Virus record (IMG/VR): IMGVR_UViG_2778261231_000005
Direction: 5' to 3' (one strand)
Length of the DNA stretch: 5,417 nt
Origin: a virus
Taxonomy: Duplodnaviria > Heunggongvirae > Uroviricota > Caudoviricetes
This document shows, in pieces, positions 88-4,742 of the stretch (positions are counted from its first letter, which is position 1; the number at the start of each line of letters is the position of its first letter). Under the pieces are notes generated by a model. The model was not told the DNA's origin. It was given only the letters and a program-made list of their open reading frames with translations, and searched no databases. The translations under genes and the position numbers were made by a program.

Positions 88-105
88 TTTTTGTGGAGTA
101 AGTTG

Positions 106-471
106 ATGCGTGATATTCAGATGGTTCTTGAGCGTTGGGGGGCATGGGCGGCGAGTGATAGTTCAGGCGTTGATTATTCACCTATAGCCGCTGGGTTTAA
201 GGGACTTCTTCCCTATACAAGCAAGAAACGCTTGGCTTGTTCGGATAGTGATGCCTTAATTATTGAAGGTTGTCTTGCTCGTCTAAAGCAAAAAAGGCCG
301 GACGAACATTCGCTTCTTGTTGCCCATTACCTATACGGTATCTCTAAAAGAAAGCTCGCCAAGGCTCGTAAAAAAGATGAGAAATTGATACGTATAGAAA
401 TACAGCTAGCCGAAGGATTTATTGATGGCTGCCTTTCCATGCTAGATCTAACATTAGATTTGGACGTTTAA
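106..471 (+). CDS. Q: Late-gene antitermination protein Q (short Q-like family, about 122 aa)
   Basis: The N-terminus MRDIQMVLERWGAWAA... and the IAAGFKGL and Cys-containing segments match my memory of short Q-like antiterminators of E. coli prophages (QuuD-like). I take ATG at 106 as the start because GGAG at 96..99 sits 6 nt upstream; the ORF track instead starts at TTG 91. Stop is TAA 469..471. Confidence 0.8.
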   Translation: MRDIQMVLERWGAWAASDSSGVDYSPIAAGFKGLLPYTSKKRLACSDSDALIIEGCLARLKQKRPDEHSLLVAHYLYGISKRKLAKARKKDEKLIRIEIQLAEGFIDGCLSMLDLTLDLDV

Positions 472-500
472 TAATACGCCCCTGCATGGGGCGTATTATT
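470..500. terminator. Perfect hairpin between convergent genes; candidate bidirectional intrinsic terminator
   Basis: The arm 470..482 (aataatacgcccc) pairs perfectly with 488..500 (ggggcgtattatt) around the 5-nt loop tgcat. The GC core cgcccc/ggggcg is followed by TATTATTT on the + strand and by TATTATTAAA on the - strand. The hairpin overlaps the stop codons of both Q (469..471) and the minus-strand NTPase (500..502). Confidence 0.45.
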
Positions 501-1831
501 TACTGGATGAATGACATTTGATTAATATATTTTATCAATAACTCTCTGGGTGTAGTACTCCAAAAATTTATGTGTTCATAATCAGTATAAACATTTGTGA
601 ATTTTTTAAGTTCTTCATCACTTTTAGGGGCAAATCGCTCATTAAGAGTAATACTGTCTTTAATTATTCCGAAGAATACAATGGATATTTCAGGGATTTG
701 CGATCTTCTCTCATAAGAATAAGGTATTTCTTTTATGTTAAGCAGGTCTGCTAAATAAGATATAGATTCAGCGGTAATTTCTTGTTTTAGTTTTTCCTTG
801 TTACCAAAGCAATGTATGAAGGCAGCTACGACAAAGATCATATTTATTAAAGGATTACTGCTTTTGTTCTCATCGTCGTTTAACAGTTGAAAAATGTTAA
901 GATTGCGTGAAAATGTTTGTGTTTCACGCAATGATAAGTTGGTTCGTTGAATTAAATCACGGATAAAGTAACCTGATAATCTATTGATTTTATTCAATAA
1001 CCTTGTTTTTTCTACAAGATAATCCCAATATATAACAGAGGCTTTACATACGTTGTGACCATTTATCAAACATGTATCTGGAAGCGTGATGGTATATTTT
1101 ATAAACTTGTCAAGATATTTTTGTGAGTTAATGCTATAACCATAAATATGATTTATAGATGCTTTTAATTGTTCTGTGTTTGTAACTAAAATAAAAAAGA
1201 CATTATTGATGTCAAAAATGTGTTTTATTGTTTCAATGACATTTGTTGAAAAACTCGGCTTACATCGGTCTAATTCATCAATTATAATTACGATTTTTTG
1301 ATTTTTTGATATACTTTCGATGCAGGATTTAAGTGAATTTATGTTTTTCTCTGAGTCCATATGGTCTTCAAGCAAATTTTCAATAGTCCCATCTATTGCT
1401 GCATTGCTTGCTTTCTTCATCGCATCTTGGAATTCTTCGGCAACTTCACTAGCCTCCTGTCGTAAAAACCAACCTGCACCAGCTTTTAGTACCGTTTTTA
1501 AACCAAAGCGAATTGCAGGAAGAGATCTCTTAATGAAGTGTTGTTTTTCTTCCTCAGGCAAAATGCTGGCAATTGCAGAGGTTATGAGAAGTAATGGAGA
1601 TTCTGCATGATCCCCTTTAAAGGCATCAATATAAACAACTTTAGATTCAGTTTCTTGCTCAATAATGAGATTTTTCAGTTTGATACTAAATTCTGTTTTC
1701 CCTGTTCCCCATGCGCCGTCTATTACCAGTGGTGAAATGTCTGCCTCTGGTTTTAGCAACTTGATGATATTTTCAGCGATGTTTCTTCGTTGGAACTCGT
1801 CACGTTCAGTGAAAGATAGTGTATCTAACAT
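500..1831 (-). CDS. KAP-family P-loop NTPase (443 aa); AT-rich cargo gene, candidate defence or abortive-infection protein
   Basis: Walker A GAWGTGKT (aa 39..46, nt 1694..1717) has the GxWGxGK[ST] form typical of KAP NTPases. Walker B IVIIIDELDR (aa 180..189, nt 1265..1294) has the hhhhDELDR form typical of the same family. Hydrophobic segments between the two motifs (LLLITSAIASILP, LPAIRFGLKTVLKAGAGWFL) fit the KAP insert. The ORF is long and uninterrupted, and its composition is clearly more AT-rich than the flanking phage genes. Confidence 0.8.
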   Translation of the reverse strand: MLDTLSFTERDEFQRRNIAENIIKLLKPEADISPLVIDGAWGTGKTEFSIKLKNLIIEQETESKVVYIDAFKGDHAESPLLLITSAIASILPEEEKQHFIKRSLPAIRFGLKTVLKAGAGWFLRQEASEVAEEFQDAMKKASNAAIDGTIENLLEDHMDSEKNINSLKSCIESISKNQKIVIIIDELDRCKPSFSTNVIETIKHIFDINNVFFILVTNTEQLKASINHIYGYSINSQKYLDKFIKYTITLPDTCLINGHNVCKASVIYWDYLVEKTRLLNKINRLSGYFIRDLIQRTNLSLRETQTFSRNLNIFQLLNDDENKSSNPLINMIFVVAAFIHCFGNKEKLKQEITAESISYLADLLNIKEIPYSYERRSQIPEISIVFFGIIKDSITLNERFAPKSDEELKKFTNVYTDYEHINFWSTTPRELLIKYINQMSFIQ

Positions 1832-1922: not shown

Positions 1923-1955
1923 CTGTTAAGAGTGGTTACTTCGCCACACAGCTTA

Positions 1956-1990
1956 AACCCGCCGTCGAGCGGGTTTTGTCGTTTTTGTTG
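1956..1990 (+). terminator. Rho-independent terminator, tR'-like (the late-operon terminator that Q overrides)
   Basis: Stem aacccgc (1956..1962) pairs with gcgggtt (1969..1975) around the loop cgtcga, followed by TTTTGTCGTTTTTGTTG. No + strand gene lies immediately upstream, so this would end a short leader RNA rather than an mRNA, as at lambda tR'. Confidence 0.55.
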
Positions 1991-2127: not shown

Positions 2128-2454
2128 ATGCCTCATAACCCAAATACCTGGTTGGAGTTGGTCCAGAGCTGGTGGCGTGGAGACACACCGCTGGGCGCAG
2201 TGATTATGTCGATTGTTATGGCTGGTTTACGTATTGCCTATTTTGGCGGTGGTGGGGGCTGGAAACGAAAAACACTCGAAATTCTACTCTGTGGCGCTCT
2301 GACGCTGACTTTTGCATCCGCTCTTGAGTATGTCGGATGGCCTAAATCACTTTCTGTTGCCATTGGTGGTGGTGTTGGGCTGATCGGTGTCGATGCTATT
2401 CGTGGGGCAGCAATGCGAGTAATCGGTAACAAATTTGGTAGCTCGAAGGAGTAA
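2128..2454 (+). CDS. S: Holin, lambda S-like (108 aa)
   Basis: Size and architecture resemble lambda S (107 aa): hydrophobic Gly-rich segments (GAVIMSIVMAGLRIAYFGGGGGW, LLCGALTLTFASALEYVGW, VAIGGGVGLIGV) and a charged C-terminal tail. It lies immediately upstream of the endolysin. SD-like GAGGTGAG sits at 2108..2115. The start codon is uncertain. Confidence 0.8.
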   Translation: MPHNPNTWLELVQSWWRGDTPLGAVIMSIVMAGLRIAYFGGGGGWKRKTLEILLCGALTLTFASALEYVGWPKSLSVAIGGGVGLIGVDAIRGAAMRVIGNKFGSSKE

Positions 2455-2457
2455 TTT

Positions 2458-2934
2458 ATGCAGGCACTAAATTCCCAGCGTAAAGCTTTCCTTGATATGG
2501 TGGCATGGTCAGAAGGAACGGATAACGGGCGACAACCGACACGTAACCACGGTTATGACGTTATTGTTGGTGGTGAACTGTTTACTGATTACTCCGATCA
2601 TCCTCGCAAACTTGTCACGCTAAACTCCAAACTCAAATCAACAGCCGCCGGACGTTACCAGCTTCTTTCACGTTGGTGGGATGCTTACCGTAAACAGCTT
2701 GGTTTGAAAGACTTCTCCCCCAAAAGCCAGGACGCTGTGGCATTGCAGCAGATTAAAGAACGTGGCGCTTTACCGATGATTGATCGTGGTGATATTCGTC
2801 AGGCTATCGACCGTTGCAGCAATATCTGGGCTTCGTTGCCGGGCGCTGGTTACGGTCAGTATGAACATAAAATTGGTGACCTGATTGCCAGGTTTAAAGA
2901 GGTTGGCGGGGTGGTAAATGAAGTTGAGCTATAA
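2458..2934 (+). CDS. R: Endolysin, lambda R-type lytic transglycosylase (158 aa)
   Basis: The translation is near-identical over long stretches to lambda R as I recall it (QRKAFLDM.AWSEGTDNGRQ.TRNHGYDVIVGGELFTDYSDHPRKLVTLN.KLKST.AGRYQLLSRWWDAYRKQLGLKDFSPKSQDAVALQQIKERGALPMIDRGDIRQAIDRCSNIWASLPGAGYGQ). AAGGAG at 2446..2451 sits 6 nt before the ATG. Confidence 0.95.
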   Translation: MQALNSQRKAFLDMVAWSEGTDNGRQPTRNHGYDVIVGGELFTDYSDHPRKLVTLNSKLKSTAAGRYQLLSRWWDAYRKQLGLKDFSPKSQDAVALQQIKERGALPMIDRGDIRQAIDRCSNIWASLPGAGYGQYEHKIGDLIARFKEVGGVVNEVEL

Positions 2935-3379
2935 GCTAGTTATCGCTGCTTTCTTCGTTACTATTATTGGTTCTTTCATCTGGTCAGCGAATCATTACCA
3001 CAATCAAGCCATTGAATACAAAAAGCAGCGCGACGAAAACGCTATGGCATTACATTCGGCTATGGCGACGATCTCTGATATGCAGAAGCGTCAACGTGAC
3101 GTAGCTGAACTTGACGCCAGATACACAAAGGAGCTTGCTGATGCTAACACGACTCTCGAAAGTCTCCGTACTGATGTCTCTGCTGGTCGTAAGCGCTTGC
3201 AAATCGCCGCCACCTGTGCAAAGTCAACGACCGGAGCCAGCGGCATGGGCTATGGAGAAAGTCCAAGACTTACAGCTGATGCTGAACTCAATTATTACCG
3301 CCTCCGAAGTGGGATCGACAAGATAACTGCACAGGTTAACTATTTGCAGGAGTACATCAAGACACAGTGCCAGAAATGA
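2918..3379 (+). CDS. Rz: Rz, inner-membrane spanin subunit (i-spanin, 153 aa)
   Basis: N-terminal transmembrane segment (LVIAAFFVTIIGSFIWSANHY) followed by a region closely resembling lambda Rz (QRDVAELDARYTKELADA..., AGRKRL, SPRLTADAE). Its start overlaps the end of R by 17 nt. Confidence 0.85.
   Translation: MKLSYKLVIAAFFVTIIGSFIWSANHYHNQAIEYKKQRDENAMALHSAMATISDMQKRQRDVAELDARYTKELADANTTLESLRTDVSAGRKRLQIAATCAKSTTGASGMGYGESPRLTADAELNYYRLRSGIDKITAQVNYLQEYIKTQCQK
3141..3326 (+). CDS. Rz1: Rz1, outer-membrane lipoprotein spanin subunit (o-spanin, 61 aa), embedded in the +1 frame of Rz
   Basis: ATG at 3141 is preceded by AAAGGAG (3127..3133). The product MLTRLSKVSVLMSLLVVSAC... has a lipoprotein signal with lipobox VSAC, then a Pro-rich stretch (KSPPPVQSQRPEPAAW) like lambda Rz1. 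The ORF track starts it at TTG 3111. Confidence 0.75.
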   Translation: MLTRLSKVSVLMSLLVVSACKSPPPVQSQRPEPAAWAMEKVQDLQLMLNSIITASEVGSTR

Positions 3380-3387
3380 ATCTATAG

Positions 3388-3415
3388 ATGACACTCCACG
3401 TTCGTATAAGATAAT
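3388..3415 (+). promoter_or_regulatory. Candidate sigma70 promoter for the 287-aa cargo gene
   Basis: -35 ATGACA (3388..3393), a 16-bp spacer, and -10 GATAAT (3410..3415), in the AT-rich gap between the Rz stop and the next ORF. This is motif matching by eye only. Confidence 0.25.
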
Positions 3416-3451
3416 GCTAAATTACTATTAGCTTAATCACAGGAGACGGAC

Positions 3452-4315
3452 ATGGAAAGAGGTGTGGTATTTAGTGCATGCGAATTACTTAAAACCGAGG
3501 ATGGAAAAGGCATCCGTACAGGTAAATGGATTAGTCAATTAGAAATAAACTATCTATGTCTTTATTGGGATAAACTAGTTTCACCCACTAATAATATTAT
3601 ACATACAGCATTAAATAACGAGGATGAATTAGAAAAATGTGGATTGCTAACCAGACCTGTATATAGACATCATGGTTGTTTTGATGGCCAATATATGGCT
3701 GATTTTTATGCTGAAACTCATGCCAAAACAATAGATATACTTAGGCATGCGGATTCTTCTGTCGATTGGCGCATGCATTTTTTAAGTGACCAAATAAACT
3801 TGGTGCCTGAATTATCTAGAACCTCAGAAGTGATACGTTTTGAGCTAGAAAATTTATTACCCGTTCCCACAGAAGATGTGCACCTACATGATATTCTTGA
3901 TTTCAAGGAAAGAAGAAAACCTGAATTAATCGCTTTACATGAATATCTTGATGAGCTTTACTTGGAAATAAAACGTTCTGGTGATATCAATCTTCAGAAA
4001 GCAAAAGCTCTTTCTAATCTTAAACAAGCAATAAAGGATATTGAACGCTTAAATTGTGAAGTGTGGAAAAGTCCAATAAAATTTAGCATCTCTACTTCCT
4101 TTGAGTTCGATTTTTCACAAATATTTAGTCTGGCGGGAACTGTTTTATCTATGTCAGTAGATTATCCTTATAATGTTATTGGAGGGGTAAGTAGTTTTGC
4201 TTATTTTTTGGGAGGATGCATAAAAATAAAGCCACAATTTCAACAAGTGTTATCATTAGGTAATGATAAATTAGTTTACATAAGCAAAGGAAAATCGGAG
4301 GGTATTATTTCCTGA
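3452..4315 (+). CDS. Hypothetical protein (287 aa), AT-rich cargo gene of unknown function
   Basis: Long open frame with a strong SD (AGGAG 3441..3445, 6 nt before ATG 3452). Composition is clearly more AT-rich than the flanking lysis and packaging genes. No catalytic motif recognised. The C-terminal part (about aa 224..257, nt 4121..4222) is moderately hydrophobic (IFSLAGTVLSMSV, VIGGVSSFAYFLGGCI). Confidence 0.7.
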   Translation: MERGVVFSACELLKTEDGKGIRTGKWISQLEINYLCLYWDKLVSPTNNIIHTALNNEDELEKCGLLTRPVYRHHGCFDGQYMADFYAETHAKTIDILRHADSSVDWRMHFLSDQINLVPELSRTSEVIRFELENLLPVPTEDVHLHDILDFKERRKPELIALHEYLDELYLEIKRSGDINLQKAKALSNLKQAIKDIERLNCEVWKSPIKFSISTSFEFDFSQIFSLAGTVLSMSVDYPYNVIGGVSSFAYFLGGCIKIKPQFQQVLSLGNDKLVYISKGKSEGIIS

Positions 4316-4391
4316 TTTTTGATTCTCATAATCAATGAATGTTTTTTGTGAATATACTTATTTTAACCCTATAAATAATCAAGGTAATAAA

Positions 4392-4742
4392 GTGCCTCCT
4401 CGTATCCCGAAAGCCTGCCGTGCTCGAGGTTGCCGTAATACCACCACAGACCCGTCAGGCTACTGCGAAAGCCACAAAAGCGAAGGCTGGAAGCAATACA
4501 AGCCAGGCCAGTCCCGACACCAGCGCGGTTATGGTGCGAAATGGGATGTTATCCGTGAACGTGTGCTCAAGCGTGACAAAGGCCTGTGTCAGTTGTGTTT
4601 GCGTGCCGGTGTGGTGCGCGAGGCGAAAACCGTTGACCACATCATCCCTAAAGCACATGGCGGCACTGATGCCGACAGCAATCTGCAGAGCCTGTGCTGG
4701 CCGTGTCATAAGGCGAAGACGGCCCGTGAACGGTTGAAGTAA
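4392..4742 (+). CDS. HNH endonuclease (phage packaging-associated HNH)
   Basis: HNH core VDHIIPKAHGGTDADSNLQSLCWPCHKAKT plus upstream Cys pairs (C..C.....C..H). It sits immediately upstream of the terminase small subunit, as in HK97-like packaging modules. I prefer GTG 4392 as the start (AAGG 7 nt upstream, and the composition shift occurs here); the ORF track alternative is ATG 4335, which has no SD and lies in AT-rich sequence. Confidence 0.8.
   Translation: MPPRIPKACRARGCRNTTTDPSGYCESHKSEGWKQYKPGQSRHQRGYGAKWDVIRERVLKRDKGLCQLCLRAGVVREAKTVDHIIPKAHGGTDADSNLQSLCWPCHKAKTARERLK

Follow-up and report, generated by a model that had tools for sequence, protein, structure and literature searches.

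What a small AT-rich gene does between the lysis and the packaging genes of a lambdoid prophage, and whether prophage, host or lytic phage profits from it, is the question raised by the locus described here. We analyzed a stretch of 5,417 nucleotides (hereafter the window; IMG/VR record IMGVR_UViG_2778261231_000005), for which a sequence-only reading had proposed that a 287-aa protein encoded at 3452..4315 is a candidate undescribed accessory or defence factor. Open reading frame calls and Pfam searches identified the window as part of a lambdoid E. coli prophage, namely the segment for late regulation, lysis and packaging. This segment comprises the antiterminator Q gene (91..471), a KAP-family NTPase gene on the minus strand (500..1831), a lambda-type holin gene (2128..2454), the endolysin gene (2458..2934) and the Rz i-spanin gene (2918..3379, plus strand; Pfam Phage_lysis, E=7.6e-39), followed by the target gene on the plus strand, an HNH endonuclease gene (4392..4742, plus strand; Pfam HNH, E=3.1e-16) and the gene of a P27-type small terminase subunit (TerS). 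An Rz1-like o-spanin open reading frame lies inside Rz in its +1 frame (3111..3326, plus strand); its lipobox-like LLVVSAC precedes a proline-rich stretch, and it carries no annotation in the two RefSeq records inspected.

The target open reading frame is as previously called (ATG start, TGA stop, 287 aa), and the strong Shine-Dalgarno sequence attributed to it can be read off as AGGAG at 3441..3445 on the plus strand, 6 nt before the ATG. It also sits in the compositional island that had been outlined around it: GC content is 0.337 in the gene, 0.361 in the 72 nt upstream (3380..3451, plus strand) and 0.197 in the 76 nt downstream (4316..4391, plus strand), compared with 0.470 in Rz and 0.573 in the HNH gene. 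The island (3380..4391) fits the points at which homology to five related prophages ends (3369-3377) and resumes (4387-4393), so that the upstream 72 nt, which carry a promoter-like element and the Shine-Dalgarno sequence, fall within the region lacking homology to these prophages. The stop-free run of the island spans 292 codons, compared with at most 165 in 2000 shuffles, and the open reading frame is a real gene rather than a chance feature. Judging from a dN/dS of 0.05-0.08, computed against homologs of 68-72% identity, the gene is under strong purifying selection.

To assess how the gene is distributed, we searched 5426 complete E. coli genomes and found it at ≥99% identity in 32, whereas the flanking Rz and HNH/TerS genes were found in 2557. 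In all 32 genomes the order is Q, KAP (if present), holin, endolysin, Rz, DUF6236 (the family of the target, see below), HNH, TerS, TerL, with Rz as the left and the HNH gene as the right anchor of the slot. At the same site, related prophages carry unrelated cargo (n=5), namely a KilA-N gene, small hypothetical gene pairs or two minus-strand genes; no empty site was found among the related prophages sampled. The view that this is accessory cargo in a variable slot is thus borne out: the gene is sporadic and of deviant composition rather than a conserved core gene of all related phages, and the protein matched no Bor-like or lysis-regulator family that would mark it as a known structural or lysis accessory protein.

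Three observations concern the surroundings of the slot. The longest open reading frame of the HNH gene begins at an ATG at 4335, within the AT-rich island (4335..4391), and its first 19 codons are probably not part of HNH, because homology to other prophages resumes exactly at the RefSeq start, a GTG at 4392. The AT-rich downstream spacer (4316..4391), which contains no hairpin, could be the end of the cassette, a recombination junction or a target of Rho or H-NS. Some prophage copies have IS3-family insertions near terminase or lysis genes (e.g. NZ_CP196255.1; L001 11692..12854), which suggests that several of the 32 prophages may be defective.

We then assigned the protein to a family. It matches Pfam DUF6236 (PF19749) with 111 bits (gathering cutoff 26.2; E=9e-32; aa 24-227 on profile positions 74-266) and phrog_23128, annotated as "unknown function", over nearly its full length (E=1.7e-143; aa 1-285 on positions 1-288 of 288). 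By exact look-up it is identical to RefSeq WP_097732668.1, "DUF6236 family protein [Escherichia coli]", and PF19749 was found in 91/91 word-indexed homologs. The label "undescribed" therefore holds for its function and fails for the protein as an entity, which is covered by Pfam, PHROGs and RefSeq annotation and by a published hotspot catalogue (Rousset 2022). No family beyond DUF6236 and phrog_23128 was returned by Pfam, PHROGs, PADLOC or NCBIfam; in particular, PADLOC-DB v2.0.0 gave 0 matches to the target protein at E≤0.1 and NCBIfam gave none. A literature search found neither "DUF6236" nor the protein accession in the main texts of papers.

A profile search of 1.84 billion representative proteins retrieved 1,744 DUF6236 clusters (407 at E≤1e-30), nearly all of them full-length single-domain proteins of 270-310 aa (~285 aa). 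A species-level genome scan placed members in alpha-, beta-, gamma-, delta- and epsilon-proteobacteria, Bacteroidota, Nitrospirota and Acidobacteriota, and additionally in one Firmicutes MAG, one cyanobacterium and one nanoarchaeal MAG. No domain fusions were seen in the family other than those to short SEC-C zinc-binding motifs (PF02810), N-terminal to the DUF6236 domain in one protein and C-terminal in another (P0104 and P0180). The window protein has the stand-alone architecture of ~270-310 aa and every near-invariant residue of the family: R3-G4, L37-Y38-W39-D40, P45, W106, P137/P139 (LPVP motif), F151-K152, Y170, D178 and Y276. The YWD, LPVP and FKxRR motifs, D178 and Y276 were conserved at ≥90% in alignments of 34 and 134 sequences, with R155 of FKxRR kept in ~90% of DUF6236 sequences. 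As the sequence-only reading had noted, no catalytic motif could be recognised, here by Pfam, PHROG, PADLOC, NCBIfam, PDB profile or fold search, and no effector-type domain (nuclease, TIR, phospholipase etc.) was found in the target protein.

Whether the gene could be expressed on its own was assessed from the region upstream. The plausible promoter proposed at 3388..3415 reads ATGACA-16-GATAAT (-35-like hexamer at 3388..3393, -10-like hexamer at 3410..3415, both on the plus strand) and has 10/12 matches to the sigma-70 consensus; promoter-like sites in the region number 2 against 4.2 expected from shuffles, so their count is not raised. Stronger backing for this promoter came from aligning the upstream regions of homologs with 54-72% identical proteins, which revealed a conserved 15-nt block, GATAATGCTAAATTA (3410..3424, plus strand), that begins with the -10-like hexamer and lies at a fixed distance from the ATG. 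With 0-4 mismatches and at 27-31 nt from the ATG, the block is also found in front of homologs whose proteins are as little as ~44-47% identical, in other phage backbones and genera including Klebsiella prophages; the chance of ≤3 mismatches in a 5-position window is ~6e-5 per locus. The -35-like hexamer is weakly conserved, homologs having xxGGCA at this position. Some homologs have a TGT (extended -10) and a perfect palindrome, CAGGCA-N9-TGCCTG, before the -10 block, overlapping the -35 and spacer (e.g. L102 ~1925..1975, L019 ~5920..5970 and L121; degenerate in the window at 3388..3409), which may be an operator. A known RNA element in this block was ruled out, with no Rfam match to the conserved upstream region at E≤1. 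To judge by sequence conservation, the -10 block is the best available support for autonomous expression. On the plus strand of 4316..4391 no terminator-like hairpin was detected, nor was one found on either side of the gene, and late transcription should therefore also read through it.

Such read-through and the position of the gene speak for a late function benefiting the phage, with expression from the late operon and action at the end of the lytic cycle, for example on lysis timing, on the envelope or against host defence. To evaluate this, we inspected the contexts of homologs in other phages. Enterobacterial homologs (28-50% identity) occupy the same lysis-packaging junction in phages with different holins, endolysins and terminases: in Klebsiella after Holin_8/Holin_3_7 and GH108 and before HNH and Terminase_4; in Citrobacter after Holin_2 and Phage_lysozyme and before Nu1-like and GpA genes; in a second E. 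coli locus (P0051) after GH108 and before Terminase_2/3; in Providencia after an M15 endolysin and LysC and before KilA-N and Terminase_2/6C; and in Enterobacter after a lysozyme and before an integrase-like gene and a portal gene. The gene lies directly downstream of spanins or endolysin, in late-gene orientation, in 7/7 enterobacterial contexts detailed. Among 48 non-redundant IMG/VR loci, endolysins (13), holins and Rz are over-represented on the upstream side, and HNH (7) and terminases on the downstream side. No terminator was found between the gene and Rz. A late function best explains the post-spanin position, though it does not account for the other sites at which the family occurs.

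These other sites are numerous. A second IMG/VR group (25-38% identity) is found within a few kb of the contig end, facing P2/Mu-like tail genes in convergent orientation; the DUF6236 gene of Klebsiella phage Mulock is located between integrase and tail fibre, and Vibrio prophages carry theirs as the terminal gene. Pseudoalteromonas and Psychrobacter have it as a solitary gene on the chromosome, and outside Enterobacteriaceae it is mostly found among housekeeping genes. A lysis-accessory role was therefore rejected as the main explanation, given homologs that are att-proximal, in the P2 hotspot or in non-phage chromosomes. Against a late function of any kind stand these homologs between integrase and tail fibre, in the P2 gpA-gpQ region, at prophage ends where they converge with tail genes and on non-phage chromosomes of many phyla, as well as the sporadic distribution of the gene, its own conserved promoter block, and a protein with no signal peptide, no lipobox (N-terminus MERGVVFSACELLK) and no holin, antiholin or Bor match. 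In the contexts inspected the gene was never translationally coupled to late genes, and every enterobacterial context had a non-coding gap upstream of it, of 47-535 bp. We consider a late function improbable.

No conserved partner or neighbour gene was found across 61 species-level loci. In a defence-island test, the 150 nearest neighbours were mostly housekeeping genes or genes of unknown function, with few and sporadic defence genes among them. Enterobacterial homologs have a GC content of 0.32-0.40, compared with 0.42-0.57 for their backbones. Because the sites are varied and no neighbour is conserved, we conclude that the DUF6236 gene works alone and is not tied to lysis.

One gene nevertheless had to be weighed as a partner, since the sequence-only reading had asked whether the target co-occurs with the KAP NTPase of the same window. 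This second cargo gene (443 aa, GC 0.33), located between Q and holin, matches PDC-S20, a phage-defence candidate in PADLOC, over nearly its full length (E=3.7e-177) and, more weakly, PifA and QatA, and was found in 50/5426 complete E. coli genomes. The two proteins could form a split two-gene system, with KAP as sensor or motor and DUF6236 as effector, or the reverse. Both are AT-rich cargo of one prophage (GC 0.33 and 0.34), and 22/32 E. coli genomes with the DUF6236 gene also have the KAP gene, leaving 10 with DUF6236 only and 28 with KAP only. The pairing recurs in an unrelated, P2-like prophage, where a 443-aa KAP homolog (43% identity) lies between CI and integrase and a 30%-identical DUF6236 homolog at a separate site; here 10 genomes have both genes, 12 DUF6236 only and 5 KAP only.

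The association does not extend further: in IMG/VR the KAP gene is near 2/8 copies of the same DUF6236 gene, and no KAP homolog was found near other DUF6236 loci (~140 loci, ≤5-8 kb either side). Co-occurrence is thus partial in E. coli and absent from the other DUF6236 loci inspected. An obligate linkage was rejected on these grounds, each gene also occurring alone. The two genes, moreover, occupy separate slots on opposite strands, and PADLOC defines PDC-S20 as a single-gene candidate. The double pairing is probably coincidental, and we regard a joint system as very improbable.

To look for functional clues in the protein itself, we examined an AF2 model (pLDDT 86). A fold search returned no solved structural neighbour of the model, and PDB sequence-profile matches to 14-3-3 and Rop were discarded as spurious (E≥0.2). 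The sequence-only reading had pointed to hydrophobic stretches in the C-terminal third as possibly membrane-interacting, an arrangement known from some abortive-infection effectors. Such a segment does exist (aa 224-257, encoded at 4121..4222, plus strand), charge-poor, hydrophobic and rich in Gly/Ala/Ser, and its relative position is conserved, but it falls short of classical membrane criteria by Kyte-Doolittle hydropathy in 19-residue windows (KD19), hydrophobic moment and AF2. In a crude hydropathy test, run in place of a dedicated TM predictor, the KD19 peak of the window protein is 1.25 at aa 241-259 (threshold ~1.6); the family median is 1.48, always at relative position ~0.86, and 24% of 134 members reach 1.6. 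The segment has a helical hydrophobic moment of ≤0.35, and the strands on its flanks show beta-amphipathicity. In the AF2 model, aa 248-279 form beta-strands and aa 224-257 a low-confidence loop and the start of a beta-strand, with pLDDT <50 at aa 232-235 and 243-245. A classical TM or amphipathic helix at aa 224-257 is therefore not supported, the KD19 peak lying below threshold, helical amphipathicity being absent and the model showing strands; neither the TM segment nor the strongly amphipathic helix expected of a membrane-acting abortive-infection effector was detected by crude hydropathy and AF2. The modelled loop might still act as a membrane-inserting or oligomerising element.

Two published studies bear on a defence function. 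The catalogue of the P2 gpA-gpQ (old/tin) region, a validated anti-phage hotspot, lists DUF6236 as stand-alone System #125, with 23 occurrences (Rousset 2022). The P2 homolog of the WP_053901735.1 type, with 30% identity to the target over the full length (E=7e-49), is located in this hotspot beside a PIN protein. In the second study, DefensePredictor (Science 2026), members of the DUF6236 family were flagged with log-odds of 8.3-11.0 for defence and no homology to known defence proteins, including candidate "6236" (WP_097421955.1; log-odds 8.56, Table S6); the window protein is not among the table entries listed. For this candidate, of 289 aa, a low-copy plasmid carrying the gene with its native promoter was put into MG1655 and challenged with 24 coliphages; the result was "defensive = FALSE". 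Two 289-aa homolog genes gave no megablast match in complete E. coli genomes. Because the only published test of a family member was negative, we do not rank the defence reading higher. It also counts against this reading that hotspot residence is guilt by association, and hotspot slots hold non-defence cargo as well, e.g. partition systems and toxins (Rousset 2022).

Alternatively, the gene could serve lysogenic conversion or host fitness independently of phage defence, through a soluble protein with ligand-binding or enzymatic activity that would benefit the lysogen by way of stress tolerance, the envelope, metabolism or virulence. Yet Pfam, NCBIfam, the PDB sequence profile and the fold search turned up no enzyme family or motif, the slots in which the family recurs, P2 gpA-gpQ included, are dominated by conflict systems, and the machine-learning predictor scored it as defence-like. 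We regard a host-fitness factor as unlikely, though as the strongest of the rival readings.

Our preferred reading is that the gene is a self-contained, lysogen-expressed moron whose most likely role lies in inter-phage conflict, a tentative choice to which we give somewhat less than an even chance. We favour it because of the defined boundaries of the cassette, its sporadic distribution, its autonomy, its residence in hotspots (the lysis-packaging junction, integrase/tail-fibre junctions, prophage ends and P2 gpA-gpQ), the lack of a partner gene and purifying selection. The DUF6236 gene would then be a horizontally mobile cargo cassette with its own sigma-70-type promoter and strong Shine-Dalgarno sequence, inserted into a lambdoid E. 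coli prophage of the HK97-head type, at the exchangeable slot that separates the lysis genes from the HNH/terminase genes. In the lysogen it would be transcribed from its own promoter, and during lytic growth read-through of Q-dependent late transcription would transcribe it as well. Its product would act as a single protein, in superinfection exclusion or narrow-range anti-phage defence.

As to how this moron product might work, the protein would be cytoplasmic, and the near-invariant polar residues of the family (R3, D40, R68, K152, R155, D167, Y170 and D178) are located in an N-terminal alpha/beta (Rossmann-like) domain and a long helical hairpin. They may form a binding site for the trigger, be it a phage protein or a nucleotide-like ligand, and the output may come from the C-terminal beta-sheet and its flexible hydrophobic loop, rich in Gly/Ala, through membrane association or oligomerisation. 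We put this sensor-plus-hydrophobic-output mechanism forward as a conjecture that is more likely wrong than right by a wide measure. A broader proposal is that DUF6236 opens a new class of exclusion or immunity factors that are carried by prophages and act as single proteins, with a new fold combining an alpha/beta sensor domain and a Gly/Ala-rich hydrophobic output loop, a promoter cassette mobile between phage hotspots, and activity against particular phages, such as temperate competitors, that lytic panels miss. It strikes us as rather unlikely but worth stating.

Genes for phage defence and lysogenic conversion have a major reservoir in prophage hotspots. DUF6236 is a recurrent, unexplained occupant of these, with ~1,700 clusters in many phyla, two lineages in E. 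coli prophages and flags from two independent studies. Should it turn out to act in defence or exclusion, it would represent a single-protein system of new fold that lacks any recognisable effector domain; otherwise, it would show where "guilt by hotspot" and the prediction of defence genes by machine learning reach a limit. In either case, the travelling promoter block offers a handle on expression in lysogens, and the lambdoid lysis-packaging junction merits cataloguing in the way of the P2 and P4 hotspots.

Among known systems, lambda bor and cargo of the Rha/KilA-N antirepressor type offer the closest positional parallels, the target likewise lying after Rz/Rz1 and before packaging genes, with deviant composition, its own predicted promoter and a sporadic distribution. 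It has neither sequence nor fold relationship to Bor and no lipoprotein signal, and it is encoded on the strand of the late genes, unlike bor, which has the opposite orientation. A moron, as reportedly defined by Hendrix and colleagues, is an autonomous cargo cassette in a phage genome. The slot holds different DNA in relatives and the base composition deviates (GC 0.34, compared with 0.47-0.58 in the flanks), as such a cassette would have it; the target falls short of the textbook promoter-gene-terminator layout in that no terminator was detected (4316..4391).

Comparison with single-protein sensor-effector defence proteins that pair a Rossmann-like sensor with a membrane output, such as Cam1 (CARF-TM) and the 2TM effectors of CBASS and Thoeris, yields a mechanistic lead and no membership: the target has no signal-generating partner gene, and its hydrophobic element, modelled in part as beta-strands, fails TM thresholds. 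Its modelled fold appears to match CARF/SAVED-type sensors no better than it matches dozens of unrelated Rossmann-like enzymes. DefensePredictor candidate "6236" is, like the target, an E. coli DUF6236 protein encoded in a single-gene transcription unit, but it is a different member of the family. P2 System #125 (WP_053901735.1) belongs to the same family and is likewise stand-alone prophage cargo in a small, high-turnover slot near cos and the packaging genes; it differs in its P2-like rather than lambdoid/HK97-type backbone, in its slot, in representing a distant paralogous lineage and in adjoining a PIN-domain gene. From Pfam DUF6236 and phrog_23128, a family with no assigned function or structure, the protein shows no sequence difference. 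The target is thus a new instance of a catalogued, functionally uncharacterised family in a known kind of locus, to which the present analysis adds a positional survey across phage backbones, a conserved promoter block, a confident structure model for which no solved neighbour was found, and the finding that the hydrophobic segment misses TM criteria.
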